Below the pieces are notes generated by a model. It was not told where the DNA came from. It saw only the letters and a program-made list of their open reading frames with translations, and did no database searches. A program made the translations under genes and the position numbers. A stretch of 54,013 bases of DNA from a virus (Duplodnaviria; Heunggongvirae; Uroviricota; Caudoviricetes): IMG/VR virus record IMGVR_UViG_2778261162_000003; one strand, 5' to 3'. This document shows, piece after piece, positions 1-54,013 of this stretch. Every line of letters begins with the position of its first letter. Position 1 is the first letter of the stretch.

Positions 1-650
<650 letters not shown>

Positions 651-952: not shown

Positions 953-1103
953 ACCGCCTCCCGTTTATTATTTATCTTCTCAGCCAGCCGCTGTGCTTTC
1001 AGGGGATTTCTGATAACAGAAAGGCCGGGAAATACCCAGCCTCGCTTTGTAACGGAGTAGACGAAAGTGATCGCGCCTACCCGGATATTATCGTGAGGAT
1101 GCG

Positions 1104-32851: not shown

Positions 32852-35800
32852 ATGGGTAAAGGAAGCAGTAAGGGGCATACCCCGCGCGAAGCGAAGGACA
32901 ACCTGAAGTCCACGCAGTTGCTGAGTGTGATTGATGCCATCAGTGAAGGGCCGATTGAAGGTCCGGTGGATGGATTAAAAAGCGTGCTGCTGAACAGTAC
33001 GTCGGTGCTGGACAGTGATGGGAATACCAACATCGCCGGTGTCACGGTGGTGTTCCGGGCTGGTGAGCAGGAGCAGACTCCGCCGGAGGGATTTGAATCC
33101 TCCGGCTCCGAGACGGTGTTGGGTACGGAAGTGAAATACGACACGCCGATCACCCGCGCCATCACGTCGGCAAACATCGACCGACTGCGCTTTACCTTCG
33201 GTGTGCAGGCACTGGTGGAAACCACCTCAAAGGGGGACCGGAATCCGTCGGAAGTTCGCCTGCTGGTTCAGATACAGCGTAATGGTGGCTGGGTGACGGA
33301 AAAAGACATCACCATTAAGGGCAAAACCACCTCGCAGTATCTGGCCTCGGTGGTGGTGGATAACCTGCCGCCGCGCCCGTTTAATATCCGGATGCGCAGA
33401 ATGACGCCGGACAGCACCACAGACCAGCTGCAGAACAAAACGCTCTGGTCGTCATACACCGAAATCATCGATGTGAAACAGTGCTACCCGAACACGGCAC
33501 TGGTCGGCGTGCAGGTGGACTCGGAACAGTTCGGCAGCCAGCAGGTGAGCCGTAATTATCATCTTCGCGGGCGCATTCTGCAGGTGCCGTCGAACTATAA
33601 CCCGCAGACGCGGCAATACAGCGGTATCTGGGACGGAACGTTTAAGCCAGCATACAGCAACAACATGGCCTGGTGTCTGTGGGATATGCTGACCCATCCG
33701 CGCTACGGCATGGGGAAGCGTCTCGGTGCGGCGGATGTGGACAAATGGGCGCTGTATGTCATCGGCCAGAATTGCGACCAGTCGGTGCCGGATGGCTTTG
33801 GTGGCACGGAGCCGCGCATCACCTGTAATGCCTACCTGACCACACAGCGCAAGGCGTGGGATGTTCTCAGTGATTTCTGCTCGGCGATGCGCTGTATGCC
33901 GGTATGGAACGGGCAGACGCTGACGTTCGTGCAGGACCGACCGTCGGATAAGGTGTGGACCTATAACCGCAGTAATGTGGTGATGCCGGATGATGGCGCG
34001 CCGTTCCGCTACAGCTTCAGTGCCCTGAAGGACCGTCATAATGCCGTTGAGGTGAACTGGATTGACCCGGATAACGGCTGGGAGACGGCGACAGAGCTTG
34101 TTGAAGATACGCAGGCCATTCTCCGTTACGGTCGTAACGTCACGAAGATGGATGCCTTTGGCTGTACCAGCCGGGGCAGGCACACCGCGCCGGGCTGTGG
34201 CTGATTAAAACGGAACTACTGGAAACGCAGACCGTGGACTTCAGCGTGGGTGCGGAAGGGCTTCGCCATGTGCCGGGCGATGTCATTGAAATCTGCGATG
34301 ATGACTATGCGGGGATCAGCACCGGCGGGCGCGTGCTGGCGGTGAACAGCCAGACCCGGACGCTGACGCTCGACCGTGAAATCACGCTGCCATCCTCCGG
34401 TACCACGCTGATAAGCCTGGTTGACGGAAGTGGCAATCCGGTCAGCGTGGAGGTCCAGTCCGTCACCGACGGCGTGAAGGTAAAAGTGAGCCGTGTTCCT
34501 GACGGCGTTGCCGGATACAGCGTATGGGGGCTGAAGCTGCCGACGCTGCGCCAGCGCCTGTTCCGCTGCGTGAGTATCCGTGAGAACGACGACGGCACGT
34601 ATGCCATCACCGCCGTGCAGCATGTACCGGAAAAAGAAGCTATCGTGGATAACGGGGCGCACTTTGACGGCGACCAGAGCGGCACGGTGAATGGTGTCAC
34701 GCCGCCAGCAGTGCAGCACCTGACTGCCGAAGTCACCGCAGACAGCGGGGAGTATCAGGTACTGGCCCGCTGGGACACGCCGAAGGTGGTGAAGGGCGTG
34801 AGTTTCATGCTTCGCCTGACCGTGGCAGCGGATGACGGCAGTGAGCGGCTGGTCAGCACGGCCCGGACGACAGAAACCACTTACCGCTTCACACAACTGG
34901 CTCTGGGGAACTACAGGCTGACAGTCCGGGCAGTAAATGCGTGGGGGCAGCAGGGCGATCCGGCGTCGGTATCGTTCCGGATTGCCGCACCGGCAGCGCC
35001 GTCGCGGATTGAGCTGACGCCGGGCTATTTTCAGATAACCGCCACGCCGCATCTTGCGGTTTATGATCCGACGGTACAGTTTGAGTTCTGGTTCTCGGAA
35101 AAACGGATTGCGGATATCAGGCAGGTTGAAACCACAGCACGCTATCTTGGCACGGCGCTGTACTGGATAGCCGCCAGTATCAATATCAGGCCGGGCCATA
35201 ATTATTATTTTTACGTTCGCAGTGTGAACACCGTTGGCAAATCGGCATTCGTGGAGGCTGTTGGTCAGCCGAGTGATGACGCATCCGGCTATCTGGATTT
35301 TTTCAAAGGCGAGATAGGGAAAACCCATCTGGCTCAGGAGCTGTGGACGCAGATTGATAACGGTCAGCTTGCGCCTGACCTGGCTGAAATCAGGACGTCC
35401 ATAACGGATGTCAGCAATGAAATCACACAGACCGTCAATAAGAAACTGGAAGACCAGAGTGCAGCGATCCAGCAGATACAGAAGGTTCAGGTTGATACAA
35501 ATAATAATCTGAACAGCATGTGGGCTGTGAAGCTGCAGCAGATGCAGGACGGACGCCTTTATATCGCGGGTATCGGTGCCGGTATTGAGAACACCCCCGA
35601 CGGCATGCAGAGTCAGGTGCTGCTGGCGGCAGACAGGATTGCGATGATTAATCCTGCAAATGGCAACACAAAACCGATGTTTGTTGGTCAGGGTGATCAG
35701 ATATTCATGAATGAAGTGTTCCTGAAATATCTGACGGCTCCCACCATTACCAGCGGCGGTAATCCTCCTGCATTTTCCCTGACACCGGACGGAAAGCTGA

Positions 35801-36330
35801 CCGCTAAAAATGCAGATATCAGTGGCAGTGTGAATGCGAACTCCGGGACGCTCAACAACGTTACGATAAATGAGAACTGTCAGATTAAAGGGAAACTGTC
35901 AGCCAACCAGATTGAAGGCGATATTGTCAAAACAGTGGGTAAGGCTTTCCCGCGGGACTCCCGGGCACCGGAGCGGTGGCCATCAGGGACCATTACCGTC
36001 AGGATTTATGACGATCAGCCTTTTGACAGGCAAATTGTTATTCCGGCGGTGGCATTCTGCGGCGCTAAACATGAGCGGGAGAATAACGATATTTATTCGT
36101 CATGCCGCCTGATAGTGAAGAAAAATGGTGCTGAAATTTATAACCGTACCGCGCTGGATAATACGCTGATTTACAGTGGTGTTATTGATATGCCAGCTGG
36201 TCACGGCCACATGACGCTGGAGTTTTCGGTGTCAGCATGGCTGGTAAATGACTGGTATCCCACAGCAAGTATCAGCGATTTGCTGGTTGTGGTGATGAAG
36301 AAAGCCACCGCAGGCATCAGTATCAGCTGA
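32852..36330 (+). pseudogene. J: Tail tip host-specificity protein J, interrupted by a -1 frameshift in a G-run (or sequencing error); C-terminal receptor-binding region appears divergent from lambda J
   Basis: ORF 32852-34204 matches lambda J residues 1 to about 445; frame changes at GGGG (34173-34176) where recalled lambda has GGGGG; downstream frame continues as [24 protein letters not shown]... matching lambda J to 36330. Confidence 0.85.
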
Positions 36331-36349
36331 ATTTTATAACCCATATACG

Positions 36350-36375
36350 GGCGCCAGAAATGGCGCCTTTTTTAT
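36350..36375 (+). terminator. Rho-independent terminator downstream of J
   Basis: Hairpin GGCGCC-AGAAAT-GGCGCC followed by TTTTTT. Confidence 0.7.
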
Positions 36376-36397
36376 TGCAGAAAAGCGAGAGGTAATT

Positions 36398-36997
36398 ATG
36401 CGTAAAGTTTGTGCAGCCATTTTGTCCGCAGCCATCTGTCTGGCCGTATCCGGTGCGCCTGCATGGGCGTCTGAGCAGCAGGCCACACTGAGCGCAGGGT
36501 ATCTTCATGCCCGTACGAACGCTCCCGGCAGCGATAATCTGAACGGGATTAACGTGAAATACCGTTATGAGTTTACGGACACGCTGGGGCTGATTACGTC
36601 ATTCAGTTATGCCAACGCTGAAGATGAGCAAAAAACGCATTACAGCGATACCCGCTGGCATGAAGATTCCGTGCGTAACCGCTGGTTCAGCGTGATGGCG
36701 GGGCCGTCTGTGCGCGTGAATGAATGGTTCAGCGCGTATGCGATGGCGGGTGTGGCTTACAGCCGTGTGTCGACTTTCTCCGGGGATTATCTGCAGGTGA
36801 CCGACAATACGGGGAAAACGCACGATGTGCTGATCGGAAGTGATGACGGTCGCCACAGCAACACGTCTCTGGCGTGGGGGGCTGGCGTGCAGTTTAACCC
36901 GACCGAATCCGTGGCCGTTGATGTCGCTTATGAAGGTTCCGGCAGTGGCGACTGGCGCACTGACGGTTTCATCGTGGGTGTCGGTTATAAATTCTGA
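36398..36997 (+). CDS. lom: Outer membrane protein Lom (Ail/Lom family)
   Basis: 199 aa with signal peptide; C-terminal ...[10 protein letters not shown] beta-barrel signature; matches lambda Lom. Confidence 0.9.
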
Positions 36998-37024
36998 TTA
37001 GCCAGGTAACACAGTGTTATGACA

Positions 37025-37050
37025 GCCCGCCGGTTCAGGCGGGCTTTTTT
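37025..37050 (+). terminator. Rho-independent terminator downstream of lom
   Basis: Hairpin GCCCGCC-GGTTCA-GGCGGGC followed by TTTTTT. Confidence 0.7.
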
Positions 37051-37061
37051 GTGGGGTGAAT

Positions 37062-39890
37062 ATGGCAGTAAAGATTTCAGGTGTACTGAAAGACGGCACA
37101 GGAAAACCGGTACAGAACTGCACAATCCAGCTGAAAGCAAAACGTAACAGTACCACGGTGGTGGTGAACACGCTGGCCTCAGAAAATCCGGATGAAGCCG
37201 GGCGTTACAGCATGGACGTTGAGTACGGTCAGTACAGCGTTATTCTGTTGGTGGAAGGATTCCCGCCGTCACATGCCGGGACCATCACCGTGTATGAAGA
37301 TTCCCGACCCGGTACGCTGAATGATTTTCTCGGTGCCATGACGGAGGATGATGCCCGTCCTGAGGCACTGCGCCGTTTTGAACTGATGGTGGAAGAGGTG
37401 GCGCGTAACGCGTCCGCGGTGGCACAGAACACGGCAGCCGCGAAGAAGTCAGCCAGCGATGCCAGCACATCAGCCCGTGAGGCGGCAACCCATGCGACTG
37501 ATGCTGCAGGCTCAGCACGCGCAGCCAGCACGTCAGCCGGACAGGCTGCTTCGTCGGCTCAGTCAGCGTCTTCCAGCGCAGGAACGGCATCAACAAAGGC
37601 CACTGAAGCATTAAAAAGTGCTGCCGCTGCAGAGTCCTCAAAAAGCGCGGCGGCTACCAGTGCCGGTGCGGCGAAAACGTCAGAAACGAATGCGGCAGCG
37701 TCACAACAATCAGCAGCCACTTCTGCATCCGCCGCGACCACGAAGGCGTCAGAAGCAGCCACCTCAGCCCGGGATGCGGCGGCCTCAAAAGAGGCAGCGA
37801 AATCATCAGAAACGAACGCATCATCAAGCGCCAGTAGTGCCGCTTCCTCGGCAACGGCGGCAGGCAATTCCGCGAAGGCGGCAAAGACGTCTGAGACAAA
37901 CGCCAGGTCTTCTGAAACGGCAGCGGGACAGAGCGCCTCGGCTGCGGCAGGCTCAAAAACAGCGGCTGCGTCGTCTGCCAGTGCCGCGTCAACAAGTGCC
38001 GGGCAGGCCTCAGCCAGTGCCACCGCCGCCGGAAAATCGGCAGAAAGCGCCGCATCATCCGCTTCAACAGCCACAACGAAGGCTGGCGAAGCCACTGAAC
38101 AGGCCAGCGCAGCAGCGAGGTCTGCTTCCGCAGCGAAGACATCCGAAACGAACGCGAAAGCGTCGGAAACCAGCGCAGAATCCTCAAAAACGGCTGCCGC
38201 ATCGTCCGCCAGTTCGGCGGCGTCATCGGCATCATCTGCGTCTGCTTCAAAAGATGAGGCGACCAGACAGGCGTCAGCAGCGAGGGGCAGCGCCACGACG
38301 GCATCCACGAAGGCGACAGAGGCTGCTGGCAGTGCGGCAGCGGCAGCACAGAGCAAAAGTACGGCGGAATCCGCGGCAACGCGCGCCGAGACAGCAGCAA
38401 AACGGGCAGAGGATATTGCATCCGCCGTGGCGCTTGAGGATGCGAGCACGACGAAAAAGGGGATAGTACAGCTCAGCAGTGCGACTAACAGCACTTCCGA
38501 GTCACAGGCGGCAACGCCAAAAGCCGTTAAGGCCGCGTATGACCTGGCTAACGGGAAATACACCGCACAGGACGCTACGACAGCACAAAAAGGAATTGTC
38601 CAGCTCAGTAGTGCAACCAACAGCACATCTGAAACGCTTGCTGCGACACCGAAAGCAGTGAAAGCAGCTAATGACAATGCGAATGGTCGGGTACCTTCTG
38701 CCCGTAAGGTGAATGGTAAGGCGCTTTCAGCGGATATAACACTGACGCCGAAAGATATTGGTACGCTTAACTCAACAACAATGTCATTCAGCGGTGGTGC
38801 TGGTTGGTTCAAATTAGCAACGGTAACCATGCCACAGGCGAGTTCTGTTGTTTCAATTACGTTGATTGGTGGCGCTGGATTTAACGTGGGGTCACCTCAA
38901 CAGGCAGGTATATCTGAACTTGTTTTACGTGCAGGTAATGGTAATCCGAAGGGGATTACTGGTGCTTTATGGCAGCGCACATCGACAGGGTTTACAAATT
39001 TTGCCTGGGTCAATACATCTGGTGATACTTACGATATTTACGTTGCAATCGGAAATTATGCGACTGGTGTAAATATTCAATGGGATTATACCAGTAATGC
39101 CAGCGTGACGATTCATACGTCACCAGCATATTCTGCTAATAAGCCGGAAGGGTTAACGGACGGTACAGTTTATTCACTCTATACGCCATCAGAGCAGTTT
39201 TATCCGCCTGGCGCACCAATCCCGTGGCCATCAGATACCGTTCCGTCTGGCTATGCCCTGATGCAGGGGCAGACTTTTGACAAATCTGCATACCCGAAAC
39301 TTGCAGCCGCTTATCCGTCAGGCGTGATCCCTGATATGCGTGGCTGGACGATTAAGGGCAAACCTGCCAGTGGTCGGGCCGTATTGTCTCAGGAACAGGA
39401 CGGCATTAAATCGCATACCCACAGCGCCAGCGCATCCAGTACGGATTTGGGGACGAAAACCACATCGTCGTTTGATTACGGCACTAAATCCACGAATAAC
39501 ACTGGTGCGCATACCCATAGTTTAAGTGGCAGCACGAATGCAGCTGGTAATCACAGCCATAGAGATGGCCGTCGATTTAACCCCAGTGTTTTTAAAGATA
39601 CTTATCAATATGGTTATACAAGCTCAGGTCAAAATACCTGGGGTGTACAAGGCTCAGTAGGTATGTCTACGGGGTGGTTAGCGAATACCAGTACAGATGG
39701 TAATCATAGCCATTCACTGTCCGGCACAGCAGCATCTGCAGGTGCACACGCGCATACTGTCGGTATTGGTGCTCATACGCACTCCGTTGCGATTGGTTCA
39801 CATGGACACACCATCACCGTTAACGCTGCTGGTAACGCGGAAAACACCGTCAAAAACATCGCATTTAACTATATTGTGAGGCTTGCATAA
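37062..39890 (+). CDS. stf: Side tail fiber protein Stf (full length)
   Basis: N-terminal 110 aa match lambda Stf ([27 protein letters not shown]...); long Ala/Ser/Thr-rich repeat region; C-terminal domain with repeated His-x-His motifs ([42 protein letters not shown]). Confidence 0.9.
37400..38470 (+). repeat. Low-complexity Ala/Ser/Thr-rich coding repeat inside stf
   Basis: Iterated SAxSAxxAAT/KTSETNA units at protein level; GC-rich repetitive DNA producing long spurious ORFs on other frames and the opposite strand. Confidence 0.8.
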
Positions 39891-41736: not shown

Positions 41737-42204
41737 TGCGATATTGTATGTCTGATTCAGGATATGTTGACTTATACATCGGTTTTGTCTGGGTTATTGG
41801 ATATGCCAATCCCTAATTTTATTAGGGCATGACTAAAAATGCTGAATATGATAAGGAGAGAAGTGATTATCAGTATGCTGTTCATATAGCCTCGAATTAG
41901 TAATGTGTTATATATGATATAGTTGACAATTTTTATCCTGGGTGTTCTTAAAGTTCGTAGATAAACATTGTCGTTTCAGGTATACAGGAATGCTAACAGG
42001 TGGCGGCAAAAATCAGGCGGTTTATGGCGCAAGCTGAAGTGGCAACTGCAAACTATCTTATGCAGAGACTCTACACGGATTGGGTTTAAAAGTATACATA
42101 GATAACAGTTTTTATCTGAAGAAGAAAAATATCAAGGTGATATAGCCTATATGCCTATGATGCGGAGGAATGAATGTGATGGGAGTGATGTATCTGAATA
42201 GTTG

Positions 42205-42243
42205 AAAAACCGCAGACACGCCTTATGCAAGAACGTGCTGCGG
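42205..42243 (-). terminator. Putative rho-independent terminator of the methyltransferase gene
   Basis: Inverted repeat CCGCAGACACG...CGTGCTGCGG followed on the minus strand by a U-run, directly downstream of the stop at 42251. Confidence 0.5.
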
Positions 42244-42250
42244 TTGGATG

Positions 42251-42919
42251 CTATTTTTTCCCTGAAGCGGAAAACATTACTACAGTACCTTGAACCTTGG
42301 TTTTAACATTCTCGAAATGCTCTGAGAGTATATGTGTTAAGCCTTCTTCGGAATCTTTTGTGTTTGAAAAGATGCCTTTCTGATTGTAAATGCGCATCAG
42401 TTTTTGACCGAAGCTATTGTGCACAACTCCATCGCCAAGAATTGTGGCTCCGTATAGAGTTCCATCGTCAGTTAAGGCCTGCGCCGCATTGCGTATTACA
42501 CAGCTTTTTGTAGATATATTTCCAGGCAGGCAGTGAAGAAGGTAAAACATGGAAATGGAATCAAATTGACCATGTAACGCCGCGGGATAAGGTTCAAAAA
42601 CATCATGGTTAATTTTATGTTTAATTTTTGATTCCCCAGCCCTTGTAGATGCCGCGTTCAGGCTAGCTTCGTTCAAATCCATTAAAGATATCAGACTACT
42701 CTCAGGTACGTGAGTAAGGTAAAACCCAGTTCCAACACCAATATCCAGATGGTTGTTACCTAAATGTTCCAGAAAGTGTGGAAGAAGGTGTTCCTTTGTA
42801 GGACATCCCCATGCAAGCCGATTTGATACTCCCAAAACCCACCAGTCATAAAGCTTTAGGGTAAGTGGTGTGTAAATTTTAGCCCCATCATCTGTGTTTT
42901 TTTTCATTAATTTCACCAT
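42251..42919 (-). CDS. ybcY: Class I SAM-dependent methyltransferase (YbcY-like), apparently intact
   Basis: 222 aa; SAM-binding motif LDIGVGTGF; AT-rich; position corresponds to K-12 ybcY. Confidence 0.7.
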   Translation of the reverse strand: MVKLMKKNTDDGAKIYTPLTLKLYDWWVLGVSNRLAWGCPTKEHLLPHFLEHLGNNHLDIGVGTGFYLTHVPESSLISLMDLNEASLNAASTRAGESKIKHKINHDVFEPYPAALHGQFDSISMFYLLHCLPGNISTKSCVIRNAAQALTDDGTLYGATILGDGVVHNSFGQKLMRIYNQKGIFSNTKDSEEGLTHILSEHFENVKTKVQGTVVMFSASGKK

Positions 42920-42975
42920 GTTATAGTTTTATTTGTGAATTAAATCAATTATGGCGATGAATTACAAGGGGTTAA

Positions 42976-43281
42976 ATGCTGCCGCAGCATAGCGATATTG
43001 AAATAGCCTGGTATGCTTCGATACAGCAGGAGCCGAATGGCTGGAAGACCGTCACCACACAGTTCTACATCCAGGAATTCAGTGAGTATATTGCGCCACT
43101 GCAGGATGCTGTAGATCTGGAAATCGCAACGGAGGAAGAAAGATCGTTGCTGGAGGCATGGAATAAATATCGGGTATTGTTGAATCGAGTTGATACATCA
43201 GTAGCTCTGGGTATGAAGCTGTTTGTAACTCATGTTACAGTAACAGTCATTACTATCTCGAAGGTGCAAAATGTATATTGA
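42976..43281 (+). pseudogene. Tail fiber assembly gene fragment (tfaX-like 3' remnant)
   Basis: ORF contains [37 protein letters not shown], near-identical to the Tfa C-terminus; about 120 nt of DNA similarity to 40318-40440; no Tfa N-terminal part. Confidence 0.75.
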
Positions 43282-43464
43282 TTTGATATTTTATAAATTT
43301 ACTTCGAATCTGGCACGTCAACTTTTGATTAAAGTAATATCAGTTTTCGGCGAAAAAAGGACCGTGTACATGAGACGATTTCATACAATAATAACAAAAA
43401 TATGAATATGCTCCCAATGCAATATATGTTTTGCATTGGGAGCAAATAGCGGAATATTTTGAAA

Positions 43465-44949
43465 TTATTGTATTTCTGCTTCAGAATTTCCTGGGCAGTA
43501 TATATTTTCTATTTTTTGTGGAGTGATCAGGTAATGTACAACTGCTTTATCTACACATAAATTAACTCCGGTGAGAGCTAATGTATGCCCATCACCATTT
43601 ATTGTTAGTAACGGGCTGGAAAATTTCTCTGCCATCTTACGGGCATTAATCCAGGGCGTTGTTGGGTCGTATTTGTGTGCTACAAACAGTAAACCAGAGG
43701 GCAGAACAGTATTTTTCAGGCGAGTTTTGTTCAGGTCGCTATGTATTGGCCATAATTCACAAAAATCAGGTGAATCGGAACGTCCATTGTCAAAGTTAAT
43801 AGCCGGGAAGGCATTCGCAAGAGCGTCTTTTCGGGATTTTCGCTCTTCTGGTGTTAATTGCTCATCCCCCTGATCTACACAGAGGATTACCCCCGAAGCA
43901 TCGCTTGACTCTTCTGAGGCTATCGGAGCACTGAGCGCAGTTTCAATTTCATTACTGACAATCCCCTGAGAGAACTGGCGTATGGCAGTTGCAAGGGTTG
44001 GCCATGATGAACGCCATAGCAGAAGGTCTGTTGTTAATGATATGAGTTCATCTGAAGATATATTTTCTCCCTTACTGTCTAATAAAGGTTTGTGATGTAA
44101 TTTTGATAATAGCTCATGGAACTGAGTTATTGCCTTATCTCTGTCTGAAGAAAGCGGGCAACTTTTTGTACGCGCACACCAGGATGCAAAGCGATCAAAC
44201 GTTTCCTGATAACTCTGTGCCTGTTTGAGTTGCCATGTGAAGTTGTCCTCCAGGTCATCGATATCGACGACTCCATCAAGAACGATAGATCTTACGTTGT
44301 AGGGAAAACGTTCTGCATATAAGGCTGCAATTTGAGTTCCATACGAATACGCCACGGCTGTCAGTTGTTTATCCCCCAAGGCTTGCCTAATACGATCAAT
44401 ATCGTATACAGCCTCGTTAGAGCCGATATGGCGAATGACTTCGGCTCCGGTATTATGGATACAGGCATTAATTTTATTTAATACTTGTTGCTTTTCGGTT
44501 ATGTTTTCCTGAGTCTCTGTATCTGATTGCCGGCAGTTTATTGTCGGAGTGGACTGTCCGACGCCTCGAGGATCAAATCCAATAATATCCCATGACTCAC
44601 GAAGATTTGTGACTGGCCAGTCAAAGTTAATATAAGGATTTATGCCTGGTAACCCGGGACCACCACTTATTATCAGGATACTTCCTTTATGCTTGCTTTT
44701 TGCCGGCAATTTTGTCAACGCTAGTTTGACTTGTGATTTTTTTTCATAAGAAGCATCTCCGCCTGTGTCTGTATATTTTAATGGAACAGACAAATAACCA
44801 CATAGTAAGTCAGGAGACGGTTTTTCCTCACCAAACCAGTGGTTGAATTGACTGGCCATACAGGATTGCCACTGTATCTGCTGGGCAGATACGGTTACTG
44901 GTAGAAGTAACGTTAAAACAACTTTGAAATGAGTGATTATTTTTCGCAT
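43465..44949 (-). CDS. Secreted alpha/beta-hydrolase, S33 (TAP/tripeptidyl aminopeptidase-like) family
   Basis: 494 aa; signal peptide; oxyanion-hole-like ISGGPGLPG; nucleophile elbow AYSYGT (x-S-x-G); family assignment from motifs only. Confidence 0.6.
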   Translation of the reverse strand: MRKIITHFKVVLTLLLPVTVSAQQIQWQSCMASQFNHWFGEEKPSPDLLCGYLSVPLKYTDTGGDASYEKKSQVKLALTKLPAKSKHKGSILIISGGPGLPGINPYINFDWPVTNLRESWDIIGFDPRGVGQSTPTINCRQSDTETQENITEKQQVLNKINACIHNTGAEVIRHIGSNEAVYDIDRIRQALGDKQLTAVAYSYGTQIAALYAERFPYNVRSIVLDGVVDIDDLEDNFTWQLKQAQSYQETFDRFASWCARTKSCPLSSDRDKAITQFHELLSKLHHKPLLDSKGENISSDELISLTTDLLLWRSSWPTLATAIRQFSQGIVSNEIETALSAPIASEESSDASGVILCVDQGDEQLTPEERKSRKDALANAFPAINFDNGRSDSPDFCELWPIHSDLNKTRLKNTVLPSGLLFVAHKYDPTTPWINARKMAEKFSSPLLTINGDGHTLALTGVNLCVDKAVVHYLITPQKIENIYCPGNSEAEIQ

Positions 44950-45135
44950 TGTGTCTCTGAATATCGGAATAAAGATAAGATTTGAATATATTGAGGTCTT
45001 GTGTTGCGGTAAGAGATTACACGTTATGACATAGGTTAAATGCTTACAAAATTAGTGGATATTGCCTACTTGTAACTGTAAACAAATTCCCCGGGGTTAT
45101 ACAATACCACCGGGGAGAAAATCTGGTTAACTTCG

Positions 45136-46089
45136 TTAAAAGGTGTACTTAAGACCAGCAGTAGTGATGAAGTTATAGTTTTCTATGCCTGCACCATTTT
45201 TGCTGTAGTCTGAAGTGTTATCATTGTGATCATAAAGTGAAGTATTACCTTTTTTATTCGTAACCCGATTCCATGCGCCTTCAACATAAACTTTTGCGTT
45301 AGGTGTTACGTAATAACCTGCATTGACTGCAACAGAATAGTAATTTTGGTCTTTGACTTTACTGCGATAAGTGATTCTTTTTCCTGGGTCATAGTGCTCA
45401 TCGTTATCAGATGCTTCCACCCAGCCGCTGTATTTAAATGTGCCACCTAGCTCAAAATCTTCATAACGATAACTTCCAGTCAAGCCAATGTAGGGCATTT
45501 TAAAACGTTGTTTGTAGCCGATTGCTCTTTCTCCATTCGGGAAGGAGCCGATATCATCTCTGAATCCCTCCTCAGAACTGTAGATATAGGAACCACCTCT
45601 GGCTGTAAAGCTATAACGGCTTTCCTGATATCCGGCCATGAGTCCCAGGCGGTAATTGGGTTCGTTGAGGAGCCAGCCTTTGATATTCAGATCAAATTCG
45701 TTGGCATAATTGAGTTGTGTATCAGGGTGCCTACTTTCATCTGTCCAGGTTCCGGGGTTACTGGAATCCATCCAGTCCTGATCGACCATATTGCCACCTC
45801 GGCTGCCGAGAGTAGTCCAGCCCGCAGCCCCAATAGATATCTGGGGCATCAAATCCCAATTAATTGCACCTTTAATAATTGCAGCGTTATTGAATTTCCA
45901 GTCGAGTTGACTGACTTTTCGGCCTCCTTCTTCAGCTAGATAAACGCGCTCTTTTGTTTTTCCGCTCAGAGTTCCAAGACTAATGTCCGCATTTATGTTG
46001 TCAGGAGTAAACGATATAGTCTCGGTAGAAGCAAAAGAGCTGATCGCAATAGGGGTTGTCAGAACTATTCCCAGAAGTTTCGCCCGCAT
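45136..46089 (-). CDS. ompT: Outer membrane protease OmpT (omptin)
   Basis: 317 aa, matches E. coli OmpT (MRAKLLGIVLTTPIAISSFA...TAGLKYTF). Confidence 0.95.
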   Translation of the reverse strand: MRAKLLGIVLTTPIAISSFASTETISFTPDNINADISLGTLSGKTKERVYLAEEGGRKVSQLDWKFNNAAIIKGAINWDLMPQISIGAAGWTTLGSRGGNMVDQDWMDSSNPGTWTDESRHPDTQLNYANEFDLNIKGWLLNEPNYRLGLMAGYQESRYSFTARGGSYIYSSEEGFRDDIGSFPNGERAIGYKQRFKMPYIGLTGSYRYEDFELGGTFKYSGWVEASDNDEHYDPGKRITYRSKVKDQNYYSVAVNAGYYVTPNAKVYVEGAWNRVTNKKGNTSLYDHNDNTSDYSKNGAGIENYNFITTAGLKYTF

Positions 46090-46511
46090 AAAAGTTCTCC
46101 ATTCAATCGTTTTAATGATTGAATATGTATTTTTTATATCTAACTTAATGAGTCAATCACATATTGCTCCACTGTTTATATTTTGTTTAGTATTGAATGA
46201 TTATCACAATGCGCTATCTGTTTTTGGTTTAATTATCTGTTATTGTTTTATGTTGCGGTTTTACTGTGTGGTTTTTTATGCTTTTGTGGTGTTTTTATCT
46301 ATTTAAGCGCCATGCCTTTAAAGGCATATAAGCGAAAATAGCATGAGGTTTATCCTCAATTGCTATGTTTTTTAGTACAAAAAAGAGGGACAAAACTGAG
46401 ACACATAAGGCCTCACAATGGCTTGCAAGGCTTTACATGTTTTGAGGTAGTGGGACGTGTGAGCGCAGAGATGGCGCGGTAATTTGTTGACTTAAAATGT
46501 CGTTCTAGGAA

Positions 46512-46556
46512 CTTCTAAGTCGTGGGCCGCAGGTTCGAATCCTGCAGGGCGCGCCA
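46512..46556 (+). pseudogene. pauD: Partial tRNA-Arg(UCU) 3' segment (pauD-like); probable prophage attR core
   Basis: CTTCTAAGTCGTGGGCCGCAGGTTCGAATCCTGCAGGGCGCGCCA equals the anticodon-loop-to-CCA part of argU tRNA; no 5' half present. Confidence 0.8.
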
Positions 46557-46601
46557 TTTCTTCTTCATTTATGCCCGTCTTATCCGTTTCCGCTTTGCCC
46601 T

Positions 46602-47363
46602 TCACCACATCACTTTTTGTCGCTGTTTGGCGAGATAATTCAACGGTGTCAGGCCGTAAAACGCCTTAAAAACAGAGATAAAGTATGACGTGCTGCTATA
46701 GCCACATAATTGCGCCACCTGAGTGATATTTTTGTTATCCATCAATAACATCTGTACGGCGTAACGCATACGACACTCTGTGACAATCTGGCTATAGCTG
46801 GTATTTTCGTTTTTTAATTTCTTTTTGAGCAGGCTGGGGCTTAAACATAGCGAACTGGCGACAATTCGCAGATTCCAGTAATGCTGAATATCGCTTTGAA
46901 TAATGCGGCAGACGCTGTCGCGGACGCTGCTGCGTAAGATATACATCAGTAGGGCAATAAACCGCGATTGCTCAAGAAAGTTAGACAATACGGTAAAAAG
47001 CAATACGCGCGTCAACTCCGCTTCGCAGGGTTTGCTGGGTTGCTGCTTGCTGTGGTTGGCGGCTAGCCGGAACACTTCCGGTGTACGGCTATGACAAGCA
47101 ATAACCGGGGTTGCCAGCCGCGACCAGGGCTTTACACAGGTTAAGTTCTTATTTAAAAACAACAGATAATCGTTGATGATGTTACGGTTGATGTGGGTGA
47201 TTAATACGTGATTTAACGTTGAGAGTTCAATGACGTTATTGTTGCACGCGAAGGCGGCCAGGTAGTTTTTCGGAAGGGTAAACGTAGCATGGTTATTGAC
47301 GCTTACCTCTACCTCTTTTTCGGTCAGGATCACCACGCAAGGTTCACTGCTGCTCAATTGCAT
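46602..47363 (-). CDS. envY: AraC-family transcriptional regulator EnvY
   Basis: 253 aa; C-terminal AraC-type HTH; position after ompT/pauD as in K-12. Confidence 0.85.
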   Translation of the reverse strand: MQLSSSEPCVVILTEKEVEVSVNNHATFTLPKNYLAAFACNNNVIELSTLNHVLITHINRNIINDYLLFLNKNLTCVKPWSRLATPVIACHSRTPEVFRLAANHSKQQPSKPCEAELTRVLLFTVLSNFLEQSRFIALLMYILRSSVRDSVCRIIQSDIQHYWNLRIVASSLCLSPSLLKKKLKNENTSYSQIVTECRMRYAVQMLLMDNKNITQVAQLCGYSSTSYFISVFKAFYGLTPLNYLAKQRQKVMW

Positions 47364-47545
47364 TTCGCACTCCTCAGATATCAGAAACTCCGCTCAAAGG
47401 ATCTATGCTTCCTGCATGAGTGATCGGCCCGTTCGCCGATAACGATCTTCTTTCTTTAGCACGCTTTTTAGCAATTAATCTTGATGGAATTCTGACGAGA
47501 GCGAAAGAGGTAAGCCAGGTCGTACCCGACTTACCTGGAGGAGAT

Positions 47546-48436
47546 TTAATACTCGAGAATGCCGTGCGCGACGGGCAAATAGCGCAGAGAGAAATAGAGA
47601 GTGTCTTTACCGCAAGAGGAACGTTTCGCTAACAGCGAGGCGATCTCTGCGTCCGGTTTCGGTTTCGCTGTAAAGGTTTTGCCTTTGCCGGCGACAAACA
47701 GTTCATAAACAATGCCGCTTGCTGGGGCGGAACTTTGGCAATCGGCGCTGGCCTGTAGATAACGTTCACGCTGTTCAGCGGTCAGTTTATCCACGCCGCT
47801 GCCATCCTGTACCCAAACATTAACGCCGGTTGCTTTAACGTGTTCCAGCAGTTGGCGATAGCCATCGGGCGACATGTTTCCGGCGAAAAAACTACTGATA
47901 TAAACCGGTTTTGCTGAAACATCGCTAATCAGCCGCTGCGCGTTGTTTAACCATGTTAGCAAAGGCTGACGGGCAGCTTCGCTGCGCCAGTTCAGGTCGT
48001 CAATTTCCGCGCTGATGTACCAGCCATCCGGCGTTACGCCAGGCGCGGCGCTCCATAATCTGGCTTGCTGGAGATCGGCAGCCAGCAGGCGATTAAGATA
48101 GCTTTCCAGCGCTGCGGACGACTGTTTCTGGTGCATAAAAAATTCCGGATCGGCGTTCAGCCCGACAATCAGCTTCAGGCCAGCCTGTTGCGCAGCTGCG
48201 GCACGCTTAAACAATAACGCGCGCTGTTCTGGCTGGGTGAATGCATCGCCGTAACGGGTCCATTGCAAAACCAGGGTATCGAAGCCTTGCAAACGTAACT
48301 GACTCATCAGCCCCTGCCACTGGGTATCGGTAACCTGACTATCTCGGTTTTGTGGTTGCCAGATAATACCTTTCATCGCAAAGGAAAAAGGGCTGACCAA
48401 AAGCAGTGTCAGCAATACGAAAATGAACTTACGCAT
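47546..48436 (-). CDS. ybcH: YbcH (DUF4434 family), signal-peptide protein
   Basis: 296 aa with signal peptide; position between envY and nfrA as in K-12. Confidence 0.8.
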   Translation of the reverse strand: MRKFIFVLLTLLLVSPFSFAMKGIIWQPQNRDSQVTDTQWQGLMSQLRLQGFDTLVLQWTRYGDAFTQPEQRALLFKRAAAAQQAGLKLIVGLNADPEFFMHQKQSSAALESYLNRLLAADLQQARLWSAAPGVTPDGWYISAEIDDLNWRSEAARQPLLTWLNNAQRLISDVSAKPVYISSFFAGNMSPDGYRQLLEHVKATGVNVWVQDGSGVDKLTAEQRERYLQASADCQSSAPASGIVYELFVAGKGKTFTAKPKPDAEIASLLAKRSSCGKDTLYFSLRYLPVAHGILEY

Positions 48437-51429
48437 TTACCAGTGCACTCCAATGGTGAGAAACGCGTTGTTGCGCTCTCCGTTACGTTGATTAATCGCC
48501 TTAAAGGTATGTTGATACTCGACGCCGAGACTGACTTTGTGCGGCCAGGCGTCGTAGTGCGTCTCGCCGGTCCAGATATTCCAGCGGACCCCGACTCCGC
48601 CAAGCTGCGCGCCCTGAGTGCCTTTATCACGATAGCCGTTGTCCTGAACGTGAGCGTAAGGCTCAATAGTCTGTCCGTTAGCTACCTTCTGATGCCAGCT
48701 GACGCGATAATCTGCCGTCCACGCCTGAATATCCTGGCGGATATATTGCGCCGCATCGAGGTACAGGTTTTGGGCAAACCAGCCTGAACCGTTCGGGTGC
48801 CATTCGTCGCTGTATTTGCCGCCATTAAAGAATGAGGCGCTGGCGCGCAGCATGGTATCGGATGCGCCATTTTGCCCGTTCAGCGGCAACTGCTGTTCGA
48901 CGGCGAGGAAAAAGATCTGATCGCGCAGCGGCTTCCAGCGCAGACCGGTGCCGGACATCGGATTTTTCACCGGCATCATCACCCCGTTTTCTCCGGTATC
49001 GGCAAAGACGCGGCTATAAACTGAGAGCAGGTCGCCTTCCAGCAGCATATTGCGTCCGATGCGGTACTCGGCTTCCAGTTGCCCGTAGCTACGATAGCTT
49101 TTCCCTGGCGCTGCGCCGCCGACATTATTGTTAGCGGTGCTCATTGCCCCGGAACGCAAGCCGATAGAAGAATCGAAACTGAACGTCCAGCGGCGACCGA
49201 CCTCCTCATGCAAACGGCGGAAATTGAAGCGTTGCTGATTTTGCTCTGGGGTCAGTGGGGTTATCAGCGCCTGATTATCAATGTCATCAATCACCAGCCG
49301 GGCGTAGTGCTGCGTCGCAGGCATGTCATCCAGACGCTGGTTCACGTAGGCCAGTTGTCGGATCAGTGCCGGATCGTCCGGAAGCCCTTTATGCGCCTGT
49401 TCGAGCATTTCCCGCGACTGTGCGATATCACCGCTATCCCACAAGGCGTAACCAAGCGCTGCCTGGATGTTGCTATTATTCGGTTCCAGTTCCAGCGCGG
49501 CGCGCAAATCACTCACCGCCGCCGGGACATTATGACGTTGGCGATAAATTGTCGCCCGCGCAACGTAAGCGTTGGCAGAAGGCGCAATATTGATTGAGCG
49601 CGTGAGATCGCTCAGTGCGAGTTCCGGCTGACCAGGAATGTAACGTTGCGCATGCAGCCACCAGTAGAGGGCATTGTTTCCCAGTCCACGTTGTTCTGCC
49701 TGTTGTAGCCAGCGATCGCGAGCTGCACCATTTCCTGCCGCCTGGGCGGTATTGGCAGCAGCAAGCAGATCCTCATTGCTCATGTCGTGAAGACTGATTT
49801 TCTGCCAGGCCGCCAGTGCGGTGGCGTAGTCCTCAACCTGATACGCCTGATAGGCTACCGCACGATGTTGCCAGGCGTTCGGTTGTCGTTGTTCGGCCTG
49901 AAGCCATGCATACAGCGCCACACCGGGTAGCGTGTCCCGATAACACTTTGCCAGACGGTTCCAGGCGGCAGCATCGTAGGAAGGCGACATATCGCCCAGC
50001 AAGCGAACTATTGCCGGGCAATTATCTGCAATACCCGGCAACTGACTTTGCCACTGACGTTGCTCCGCCAGCGGTAAGGGTTTCGATAAAATCGCCACCT
50101 TCGCCGGCGTTGCCAGGTAAGGATGACTTTCCAGCAGAGACGCCAGTCGCGCCATTAAAGTCTGGCTGACACGCGCATCGCCCTGGAAAGGATAGCGTTG
50201 CAGCAATAAATCGGCAGCTTCGCGTGACTGCTCGTTCTGCATCAGTTGCCAGGTCAGTTGATCCAGGCGGGTAAGATTTGCCGGTTCTTGCTGATACAGC
50301 AATCGTGCCAGACGCAGAGATTCAGCCTTGTTACGGGCGCCACGCTGACAGCATAACGCTCCTCAAGCATTTCATTGGCGGGGAGGGTGGCGAGCAGTTT
50401 TTGCGCTGCGTCGTACTGACCTTCTTTTAACAGCACCGGTAGCGTCGCGCCAACAACATACTGGCGGTTATCGGCAAACTGCACCGTATAATTCGCCAAT
50501 GCCTGAACGGGGTTGGCGCTGTATTTAGATAACAGATAGAGCCAACTTTTCTCTTGTGCGTCCGTGGTAAACAGCGGCTTATTTTCATTGAGATAATGCT
50601 GGAGGCGTGCTTTTTCGCCACGATAAGCCAGCGCGGTCGCGTAAGTAATATATGACTGAGGATCGGTGAAGATCCCCTGTGATTGCAGTGCCAGGATCCG
50701 ATCGTCCAGCTGCCCGGCAAGAAGCACGTCAAACCACTGACGGCGTTCTGCCGCGCTTAATGTGTTCTGCTGGCGTGCTTCATTGTATAGCGTATCTGCC
50801 TGGGACCATTGTTTCAGGTAGATTGCCCGTTGCAGCAGATCGGTTCGCAGCGTTTTTCCTTCTGGCGATGCAGCAAACGTCGCATCGTTCAGTTGCGCTC
50901 TGGCGACAGGTAATTGTGCCAGCCGCAGGGCATTCTGCCCGACTTCACTGCGACAACGCAGGGTCGGCGCAGCGTCGCACGCTTTTTGCTGGGCAAGCAG
51001 TTCTTCAACAGTCGTAACGCTTTTCACTTCAACCGGAATAGCCGCCAGACTGCGCTCAAGTCGGGCATCTCCTGGGTGACGTTTCAGTTGATCCTCAAGC
51101 AACAGCCGCGCCCGGTCATCATGACCAAAATGGCGATAGGCTTCCGCAAGGTATAAAGTAAGCGGAATATTATCCGGCACCTGCTGGTGTATATATTCAA
51201 ATTCGCGGATGGCGGTTGCTTCGTCGTTATTTTTCTGTGCCTTCAGCGACTTATCGAGACGGGGATAAATAACAAAATGGCGATAATCGCTCAGCCCCAG
51301 CTCTTCTGCGCTGGTGCCGATATTGTCTGCGAGTGCGCTGGTACTCAATAAAGACGTCAGCAGTAAACCAGACCATCCGATGACGCGATTAAGGTTATTC
51401 TCCTTCATTTTCGGACTCCAGTTGCGCAA
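48437..51429 (-). pseudogene. nfrA: Bacteriophage N4 adsorption outer membrane protein NfrA, split into two overlapping ORFs (frameshift or sequencing error)
   Basis: N-terminal ORF 50254-51429 (391 aa, signal peptide, TPR-like) and C-terminal ORF 48437-50302 (621 aa, ends ...AFLTIGVHW) in different frames, overlapping about 50 nt; together equal NfrA length (about 990 aa). Confidence 0.8.
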
Positions 51430-53632
51430 CCTGTTCTGTGTTTAAACCTGCTTTGAGTAATAGTGATTGCATCGAAACTTGTAATTCGCGTTGAATTGTC
51501 AGGACGCGATCCAACGTTTCCTGGCTGATAACGCCTTCGGTGACCAAAAACTTGCCGAGCGGCAGAGAACTGCGTTCATGGCGCAATAACAACACGTTAA
51601 TTGCTGAACGATTAATATGACCGAGCGTGGTCAGTATTTCGGCGAACAGGAACTGATGCGGCACATATTGCCGCCAGATTTCACCGGTCTGCTGTTCCGT
51701 GAGCCACTGATGCTGAACCGCATTGTACAACATTGCCCGCGGATCGTGACCGCGTCGGCGTGCATACCAGTGACGTAACCCCGTGACAATTTGTCCCCGC
51801 AGAACAATGACGTAACGCACTTTGCGTCCGACTTTACGCGTCAGGGCCGCCAGCGAAACCGGGTCAATACCATCTTCACTGCCGACAATTAACTCATCAT
51901 TTTCCAGACGCAGCGGCAGTACTGCATAATGCAGCGCTACGGAGGCTGGCATTTCGGCAATCAGCGAGGACGGGATCTGCCAGGCATCGATGGATTCCCA
52001 CGCCACGCCGTTTTGCTCTGCCAGCGCCTGTGCCAGCTGCTCGGCGCTAATCAGCCCCTGCATCAGCATTGAACCGCCCAGGCGTAGACCTTCGACGCGA
52101 TTACGCAGTGCTGTATCGAGTTGTTCTTCAGTGATGACCTGATTTTCCAGCAGAATTTGGCCTAACGGGCGCAACGAGCGGGTATCGCCAGTCACGCTGG
52201 GGAAGTCATGCGTTGTTTTATCCCACGCGACGCGACGTGGATCGCCGTGTTGAAGTACCTGTTTTAGCGCGCGCCAGTTGGCCATGAAGTTAATCAGGTT
52301 GCCCCAGAAAAGACGCAGGACAGATAGCAGCCCCTGCGTCAGACCGTAGTAGCCAGTGACGAAAATCACCCGCTGCACGATGCGGTTAACCATCAAGCCA
52401 AAGTTTAGCCACAGCAGGGTCATTAACCATGCGCTGCCGCTAAAAATAGAAAGGAAATGCCAGGCATTGGGCCACAAACTTTCATACGCCAGCAACAGCA
52501 AAAGCTGGAGCATCACCAGCATCGCGAGGAAGCTGACAAAGTTACTGATTGCCCCTTTGCGGTCGCGCCAGAGAAAGTAGTTCAGCGTCAGGCTGGAGGT
52601 CCATTTGTGGGTTTTAAAGCCCTGGAAAACAATGCCGATGATCCAGCGAGATTTTTGTCGAACTGCAGTCGAAAAGGTATCGGGGAAATATTCGCGCACG
52701 CAGATCATGTTTGACGTCCGTGCGTGCTGTAAAAATTTGCGCTGCTCGCGTTCTTTGGCTTCGTCCACCACCGGAAAACGGACAAAAATTTCCGTCATAC
52801 CTTTCTCTTTCAGGCGGAAACCAATGTCGTAATCTTCAGTCAGACTCTGCACGTCGAAAGCAATACCGTCACCGTCAGCTAACAGAGCGGTCACGGCGCG
52901 GCGGCTGAAACAGGTGCCGACGCCTGCGCTGGGCACTTGTCCGGCGAGGGCTTCACGCACCGGAACATCTTTGCCATGCAGCTCTGAAAACTCATCAATG
53001 TAAGTCATGCTGGTGAAGTGCGTCCATTCGCGTTCGAACGGATACACCGGGATCTGAATCAGATCTTTACGCTCGACCAGATAGTTGAACAGACGCAATT
53101 CCATCGGTGAAATCACATCTTCGGCGTCATGCAGAATAAAACCAGCAAAAGCGAAATTGGCGCTACGTTCAAACTGGGTGATGGCGTCCAGCACGTTGTT
53201 CAGACAGTCGGCTTTGCTGGTGGGACCAGGACGCGCGCAGACTACCTTATGCACGTTCGGAAAGCGAGCGCACACTTCGTCAACATCACGTTGAGTATCG
53301 GGGTCGTTGGGGTAGGTGCCAACAAAGATATGATAGTTTTCGTAGTCGAGCGTGGTCGCCGCCAGCTCGGCCATATTGCCGATGACGCCCGTTTCATTCC
53401 ACGCCGGAACCATAATCGCTAACGGTTTTTCATCTGGTTTATACAGTTCGCGGTAACTCATTCGCGGGTAGCGGCGATAAACACTCAACTTGCGTTTAAT
53501 GCGGCGTACCCAGTAGACGACATCAATAAAAAAATCGTCCAGCCCGCTGATGAACATGATGACCGCTAACGTTATCGCGATTACTTTTAAGCCGTAGAGC
53601 CAGGTTGCAAAAACATCAAGAAGCCAGTCCAC
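51395..53632 (-). CDS. nfrB: Bacteriophage N4 adsorption protein NfrB (inner membrane GT2 glycosyltransferase)
   Basis: 745 aa, matches E. coli NfrB; overlaps the nfrA start (nfrBA operon). Confidence 0.9.
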   Translation of the reverse strand: MDWLLDVFATWLYGLKVIAITLAVIMFISGLDDFFIDVVYWVRRIKRKLSVYRRYPRMSYRELYKPDEKPLAIMVPAWNETGVIGNMAELAATTLDYENYHIFVGTYPNDPDTQRDVDEVCARFPNVHKVVCARPGPTSKADCLNNVLDAITQFERSANFAFAGFILHDAEDVISPMELRLFNYLVERKDLIQIPVYPFEREWTHFTSMTYIDEFSELHGKDVPVREALAGQVPSAGVGTCFSRRAVTALLADGDGIAFDVQSLTEDYDIGFRLKEKGMTEIFVRFPVVDEAKEREQRKFLQHARTSNMICVREYFPDTFSTAVRQKSRWIIGIVFQGFKTHKWTSSLTLNYFLWRDRKGAISNFVSFLAMLVMLQLLLLLAYESLWPNAWHFLSIFSGSAWLMTLLWLNFGLMVNRIVQRVIFVTGYYGLTQGLLSVLRLFWGNLINFMANWRALKQVLQHGDPRRVAWDKTTHDFPSVTGDTRSLRPLGQILLENQVITEEQLDTALRNRVEGLRLGGSMLMQGLISAEQLAQALAEQNGVAWESIDAWQIPSSLIAEMPASVALHYAVLPLRLENDELIVGSEDGIDPVSLAALTRKVGRKVRYVIVLRGQIVTGLRHWYARRRGHDPRAMLYNAVQHQWLTEQQTGEIWRQYVPHQFLFAEILTTLGHINRSAINVLLLRHERSSLPLGKFLVTEGVISQETLDRVLTIQRELQVSMQSLLLKAGLNTEQVAQLESENEGE

Positions 53633-54013
53633 ACAAAAACCTTACATTAACGCTGGTTATGTTTAGGGTGGCGTATATTAAGGTTTTTTATGAATTGTGA
53701 CAGCTTTTTACCATTAATAGGTATGACTATTGCGGCACGTTATTTTTACACTGGTTATAAAAGTTGCCGTTTGCGTAGAATGTAGACAAAAGCATGGTGT
53801 CAAGGAGGGGAGGTTAACGTCATAGTGAAAAGGAGCGGTGGCACCGAGCAGGTCATAATGTAGTGGAAGTGCCTGGAGGAGGTGAGCAGGCAGGGCAAGA
53901 TTACGAAAGCCCGCTCCCCGCAAGGACTGACGCGAGATAGTTTCTGTCCATGGCTGCTTTTCGCATCTTACGTCTTAACCCTGCCTTGAATACCTTATCA
54001 TTCGTCAAAATAT

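Follow-up and report, generated by a model that had tools for sequence, protein, structure and literature searches.

Whether the gene nfrA of an E. coli strain has genuinely been inactivated, and what its inactivation would mean for the strain, is the question raised by a 54,013-nucleotide stretch of DNA (hereafter the window), which is all of contig NTPL01000026.1 (assembly GCA_002463795.1). The protein NfrA combines a signal sequence with periplasmic TPRs and a 16-strand outer-membrane barrel, and it exports the ManNAc polymer NGR made by NfrB (PMC8669472, PMC8669469, PMC13434306). It is also bound by gp65, the tail sheath of phage N4 (PMC8669472, PMC8669469, PMC13434306), and deletion or disruption of nfrA abolishes N4 infection (PMC8669472, PMC8669469; RB-TnSeq in PMC7553319).

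Two overlapping minus-strand ORFs are present where a single gene is expected, as had been described in an earlier reading of the DNA (the sequence-only reading). These are 50254..51429 (391 aa, from an upstream TTG) and 48437..50302 (621 aa), and they overlap by 49 nt. The annotated start of nfrA is the ATG at 51408, giving a product of 384 aa, and the TTG at 51429 is not the true start. A megablast comparison of window positions 48300-51600 with 5,426 complete E. coli genomes gave matches in 5,221, the features matched being ybcH, nfrA, and nfrB, with 99.9% nucleotide identity over 3.3 kb to annotated nfrA in many complete genomes. In the best of these matches 3,302 record bases align with 3,301 query bases. 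For base-level alignment the reference was E. coli G3, in which nfrA is annotated as a single CDS of 990 aa (WP_097465412.1), in agreement with the length of about 990 aa that the earlier reading had given for NfrA. Exactly two differences from G3 were found in 48300-51600, a 1-nt deletion (50337/50338) and a SNP at 51160. The frame change had been placed somewhere in 50254-50350, to be located by alignment to a reference nfrA; the comparison with G3 pins it to this one indel, inside that interval.

The base lost, a T on the plus strand, is read as A on the coding strand, where its context is GTGGCG[A]CCCGTAAC. The frameshift falls at codon 358 of 990 and leads to a premature TGA at 50254-50256 (codon 385), and NfrA residues 358-369 are missing from both fragments (coordinates are collected in the table). 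In intact NfrA, Pfam identifies TPR_19 at residues 60-124, further TPRs at approximately 549-704, and NfrA_C (PF13283) at 809-977. In the window, NfrA_C (PF13283, E=4e-68) falls only on the 621-aa ORF, on which no signal peptide was found, and the 384-aa product has TPR_19. The locus has the full-length nucleotide similarity, the nfrB-nfrA-ybcH operon context, and the TPR and NfrA_C domains of the nfrA family. It does not have the uninterrupted polypeptide of approximately 990 aa, with signal peptide, TPRs, and barrel, by which a functional NfrA is recognized. Judged from its sequence, the window nfrA is a pseudogene of the family and not a functional member.

Features of the window, with the nfrA lesions of other sequencing runs. 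Positions are those of the window, except where given as nt of nfrA.
Feature	Position	Strand	Description and basis
nfrA, putative pseudogene, full extent	48437..51408	-	ATG at 51408 to native TAA ending at 48437; identity to annotated nfrA
1-nt deletion site	50337..50338	-	c.1072delA, p.Thr358ProfsTer28; coding context GCG[A]CCC; alignment to G3
Truncated N-terminal product, 384 aa	50254..51408	-	Signal peptide and first TPR block; 357 native and 27 out-of-frame residues
Downstream ORF, 621 aa	48437..50302	-	Identical to native NfrA residues 370-990 (remaining TPRs and NfrA_C barrel)
Synonymous SNP	51160..51160	-	Leu83 CTG>CTT, relative to strain G3
nfrB, c-di-GMP-activated glycosyltransferase, intact, 745 aa	51395..53632	-	ORF; overlaps the nfrA start by 14 nt
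ybcH (DUF4434), intact, 296 aa	47546..48436	-	Last gene of the nfrBA-ybcH operon; ATG directly after the nfrA stop
attR-like 3′ 48 nt of tRNA-Arg (argU)	46509..46556	+	Right end of the island; alignment to island-free G3
SAM methyltransferase	42251..42919		Between tail genes and attR-like argU fragment
Alpha/beta hydrolase	43465..44949		Between tail genes and attR-like argU fragment
Gene J, split prophage tail-tip gene	32852-36330	+	ORFs of 450 aa (32852..34204) and 698 aa (34234..36330)
delA, other run	nfrA nt 981		In an A4 run
delA1002, other run	nfrA nt 1002		Not a homopolymer
delA, other run	nfrA nt 1007		In an A5 run
CT duplication, other run	nfrA nt 1014		
delC, other run	nfrA nt 1019		
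delC, other run	nfrA nt 1022		
delC, two other runs	nfrA nt 1026		In a C4 run; different backgrounds
13-nt deletion, other run	nfrA nt 1058-1070		

It is conceivable that function is kept despite the frameshift, by ribosomal frameshifting, by transcriptional slippage, or by assembly of the protein from two fragments, and the overlapping ORFs do jointly cover nearly all of the native residues. However, neither a slippery heptamer of the X XXY YYZ type, as would be expected for programmed frameshifting, nor a run of at least four identical bases is present between the deletion and the stop. Likewise, no Shine-Dalgarno-like sequence precedes the candidate restart codons, which are the TTG of the 621-aa ORF and the next in-frame ATG/GTG. 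Without a signal peptide, the C-terminal fragment could not be delivered to the outer membrane, and the residues absent from both fragments would still be wanting. Retained function is considered extremely improbable.

A second explanation is that the nfrA of the strain is intact and that the base only seems to be missing, owing to a sequencing or consensus error in the read data. The allele is known only from GCA_002463795.1 and from the Logan assembly of run SRR3989769, the data of which are probably the source of GCA_002463795.1, and it is absent from every other collection searched. In the Logan assembly a 7,392-nt contig is an exact substring of the window (46529-53920), deletion included; the lost base was therefore already missing from the reads and does not stem from a single assembler. 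Since the same run is probably behind both assemblies, this match is independent of the assembler, but not of the sequencing.

The surroundings of the deletion argue against error. Window positions 41791-54013 were compared with strain 2015C-3905 (12.2 kb, 99.85% identical); 18 substitutions were seen and the nfrA deletion is the sole indel in this flanking chromosome. Among homopolymers of at least 5 nt in the blocks aligned to 2015C-3905, 255 out of 256 are equal in length, including all 66 of at least 6 nt, and the only one that differs sits in gene J and not in nfrA. At the deletion site itself there is no homopolymer, and no run of at least four identical bases occurs in nt 1041-1170 of nfrA. 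Where genuine error trouble is seen, in low-coverage metagenome copies of nfrA, there are 4-12 scattered indels per gene, which is unlike the window. An error-prone assembly was considered and is not supported by either the homopolymer audit or the indel counts.

On the side of error stands a second private 1-nt deletion in the same contig. It lies near 34168-34172, in a G5 run of gene J that is G4 in the window, and tblastn with the intact 1,137-aa J protein shows the frame switch at approximately residue 445. This allele was found in none of the 4,272 complete genomes that match at the site, and it too is reproduced in Logan SRR3989769. It could signal some indel error or a mutation that arose in culture; a real deletion would leave the prophage without a functional tail tip. 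With both sides considered, an artefact at nfrA is improbable and the deletion is most likely genuine, though its support may rest on a single read set.

The absence of a homopolymer also bears on phase variation. The nfrA gene was considered as a phase-variable (contingency) locus and this was rejected, there being no long simple-sequence repeat at GCG[A]CCC or in the surrounding sequence in which runs were sought.

To gauge how far the allele has spread, 100 nt with the deletion at the midpoint were used as a query. Matches were obtained in 5,140 complete E. coli genomes, and c.1072delA is in none of them; the best matches are all 99.0% identical over 101 record bases, and those genomes therefore carry the extra base. 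Neither the metagenome collection nor that of species-representative genomes contains the exact 35-nt deletion junction, and the wild-type junction is found in 58 metagenome contigs. Records of the exact 384-aa product are confined to NTPL01000026.1 and Logan SRR3989769. On these sequence comparisons the allele is most likely private to the strain and a very young pseudogene, since it differs from an intact allele by only one other nucleotide change.

A shared, inherited allele was at first suggested by the exact 621-aa ORF, which is present on 24-26 contigs, as if one lineage carried the same deletion. Alignment ruled this out, as the nine other Logan runs that were examined are wild type at c.1072 and each has a frameshift of its own. 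The shared ORF arises from the way it was ascertained: a -1 shift anywhere from approximately nt 980 to 1107 runs into the same TGA, and the same TTG is then called as the start.

Between them, the nine runs have eight different nfrA frameshifts, all at nt 981-1070, so that with the window there are nine lesions in ten runs within a 92-nt stretch, a clustering that partly reflects the search, the runs having been found through the shared 621-aa ORF. Like the window allele, the other natural alleles truncate NfrA before the barrel, although each is a different lesion and several are in short homopolymers (A4, A5, C3, C4), unlike the GCG[A]CCC of the window. Run ERR10499136 also has a 1-nt deletion that splits nfrB into two ORFs of 372 aa.

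Further disruptions of nfrA were seen outside these runs. One complete genome, that of strain 1EC213, has an IS1 insertion in nfrA, and two partial metagenome contigs lack internal segments of nfrA (about 145 nt in one, 300 nt in the other). In a rough sample of full-length metagenome copies, 38 out of 43 are intact. The five broken copies comprise two with a shared nonsense codon 499, two that are of low coverage and riddled with indels, being assembly errors, and one that is divergent. The TAG at codon 499 is in ERZ772855 NODE-2469 and ERZ791801 NODE-248, both well covered (about 20x and 75x). As a rough figure, nfrA is disrupted in approximately 5-10% among gut-metagenome contigs. Losses of nfrA recur across isolates. 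That nfrA is a recurrent target of loss of function, either through predation by NGR/NfrA-dependent phages or through the cost of the Nfr exopolysaccharide, with the window allele as one fresh example, is a tentative and rather unlikely suggestion, the counts being without a denominator or a control gene.

The partner genes of nfrA are intact. In K-12, the operon is nfrBA-ybcH, with a 14-nt overlap between nfrB and nfrA (PMC8669469). The statement of the sequence-only reading that nfrB is intact is borne out by the 745-aa ORF, the product of which is identical to G3 NfrB. Residues D169, D267, W330, L490, G491, and L537, which are needed for activity and c-di-GMP binding (PMC8669469), are all kept. 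Downstream, the start of ybcH is now 1,817 nt from the premature nfrA stop, and with this length of untranslated mRNA upstream, expression of YbcH may drop; YbcH is dispensable for N4 infection (PMC8669469).

At the right end of the contig (53920-54013), the NCBI and Logan contigs both end within approximately 400 nt upstream of nfrB. Complete genomes have ISEc1 (ISAs1-family) at this position, which probably explains the assembly break.

The frameshifted gene had also been described as lying next to a prophage. The adjacency holds, as the attR-like fragment of argU is separated from envY by 46 nt and from nfrA by 1.9 kb. The window contains no complete tRNA. In strain G3, argU itself abuts envY, 46 nt away, and the island, including ompT, is absent. 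The closest complete genomes annotate the 45 kb upstream as a lambdoid prophage at argU, and the best complete-RefSeq matches to the prophage are 98.4-99.4% identical. Its order is exo, bet, gam, replication genes, emrE, ybcK, rusA, quuD, a porin gene, essD/rrrD/rzpD, iss, terminase, portal, tape measure, J, lom, and tail fibre, after which come the methyltransferase, the alpha/beta hydrolase, and ompT. These last three lie between the tail genes and the attR-like argU fragment and are therefore carried inside the island.

This arrangement is, however, the normal chromosomal layout. A 25-kb stretch from the tail genes to nfrB is present in one place, over at least 80% of its length, in 254 complete genomes, and nfrA is unsplit among the matches listed. 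Conversely, the nine other runs with nfrA frameshifts differ from the window in having no argU island and no ompT, with envY directly beside fimZ/sfmF. A functional link between prophage and nfrA was rejected, given a standard argU island, genomes of the same layout with nfrA unsplit, and island-free strains that are also frameshifted.

Two other observations were made on the prophage. The contig begins with a fragment of an IS21-family IstB ATPase gene, at window positions 12-530 (plus strand), that codes for the C-terminal part of the protein (Pfam IstB_IS21, E=4e-64). Matches to the closest genomes begin only at position 590; an IS21-like element is therefore placed in the left (early-gene) prophage arm, and probably caused the left contig break. 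Also, window 35347-38456, which holds lom together with the 3′ portion of J and the 5′ portion of the side tail-fibre gene, either finds no megablast match in the closest complete genomes or aligns to them at 94% identity with numerous small indels, while the rest of the prophage is 98.6-99.9% identical to them. By this comparison, the segment looks like a mosaic host-range module.

The closest known systems are the K-12 nfrA (b0568) null mutants, the classic N4-resistant nfr strains and the delta-nfrA strains, in which the same gene of the same operon, with the same 14-nt overlap, is affected and the outer-membrane component is lost. These neither adsorb nor plate N4 (PMC8669472, PMC8669469, PMC7553319). 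They were constructed or were selected with phage, whereas the window has a spontaneous 1-nt deletion in the draft genome of a non-K-12 strain, with a predicted phenotype. The widely used E. coli B/BL21 lineage is without nfrAB and is N4-resistant (PMC7553319), and lesions in nfrB or dgcJ have been reported for all B strains (PMC8669472). This is likewise a natural or historical loss of the N4 receptor system, but there the genes are absent or the lesions are in nfrB or dgcJ, while in the window nfrB is intact, ompT is present, and only nfrA is frameshifted.

NfrA has been likened to PgaA, BcsC, and AlgK/AlgE, with periplasmic TPRs, a C-terminal 16-strand barrel, and a c-di-GMP-activated synthase as partner (PMC8669472, PMC8669469), the likeness to PgaA/BcsC/AlgE resting on the structural models in PMC8669472 and PMC8669469. 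By analogy with this architecture, truncation before the barrel should abolish export. A PDB sequence search with NfrA gave generic TPR matches only, and no NfrA or barrel homologue.

The proposed course of events is as follows. Translation would stop after 384 aa, so that of the native domains the secreted product would retain no more than the signal peptide and the first TPRs. The rest of the TPRs and the C-terminal barrel are encoded by a separate ORF without a signal peptide or ribosome-binding site, and it is therefore proposed that no pore would reach the outer membrane. The NfrB synthase is intact, yet its polymer could not be exported. For N4 and other NGR/NfrA-dependent phages, the primary glycan receptor would thereby be gone, and so would the terminal receptor to which gp65 binds. 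Going by published genetics and the sequence, the allele is expected to be null, with neither NGR export nor terminal receptor, and the predicted phenotype is N4 resistance and absence of the Nfr exopolysaccharide. Without translation over the 1.8 kb upstream of ybcH, there would possibly also be less YbcH.

The claim that loss of NfrA confers N4 resistance agrees with the published nfrA knockouts, which are N4-resistant (PMC8669472, PMC8669469, PMC7553319), and from these the source strain is probably N4-resistant. To call the change a receptor-loss mutation, as the earlier reading did on condition that it is real, describes a predicted consequence that holds, but is narrower than the role of NfrA, which is also the NGR exporter, so that the exopolysaccharide pathway would be lost too. 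Taken as a whole, the explanation that a genuine, very recent, strain-private c.1072delA inactivates nfrA, with predicted N4 resistance and no Nfr exopolysaccharide, is considered highly probable.

What drove the loss is a separate matter. There is an even chance that the mutation is real and was not selected by phage, but came about through neutral decay, through the cost of the Nfr exopolysaccharide or its interference with motility, or through laboratory passage. A pdeH ycgR mutant, in which c-di-GMP is high, regains motility when nfrA or nfrB is disrupted (PMC8669469). In addition, IS elements, deletions, and premature stops occur in nfrB or dgcJ of some E. coli, including all B strains, which Sellner et al. 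read as a fitness cost (PMC8669472). The window allele is a mutation at the tip, with no sign of spread, and the many different private nfrA lesions elsewhere are as expected of a dispensable gene in a very large collection. However, nfrA is intact in most genomes, including the greater part of the full-length metagenome copies, so there is no general decay. Nor do the data separate these causes from phage selection, for which the predicted biochemical and phage phenotypes are the same; phage selection, cost, drift, and laboratory passage would all yield the same genotype and are inseparable here.

This is an ordinary one-off loss-of-function allele in a gene for which the pathway and the null phenotype are already established. 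The strain is predicted to be resistant to N4 and other NGR/NfrA-dependent phages, and to be without a surface polysaccharide controlled by c-di-GMP, which is useful for host-range prediction or the matching of phages for therapy. Private pseudogenes in this receptor pathway occur often enough in E. coli that, when phage susceptibility is predicted from genomes, nfrA, nfrB, and dgcJ should be examined for intact reading frames and not just for presence.
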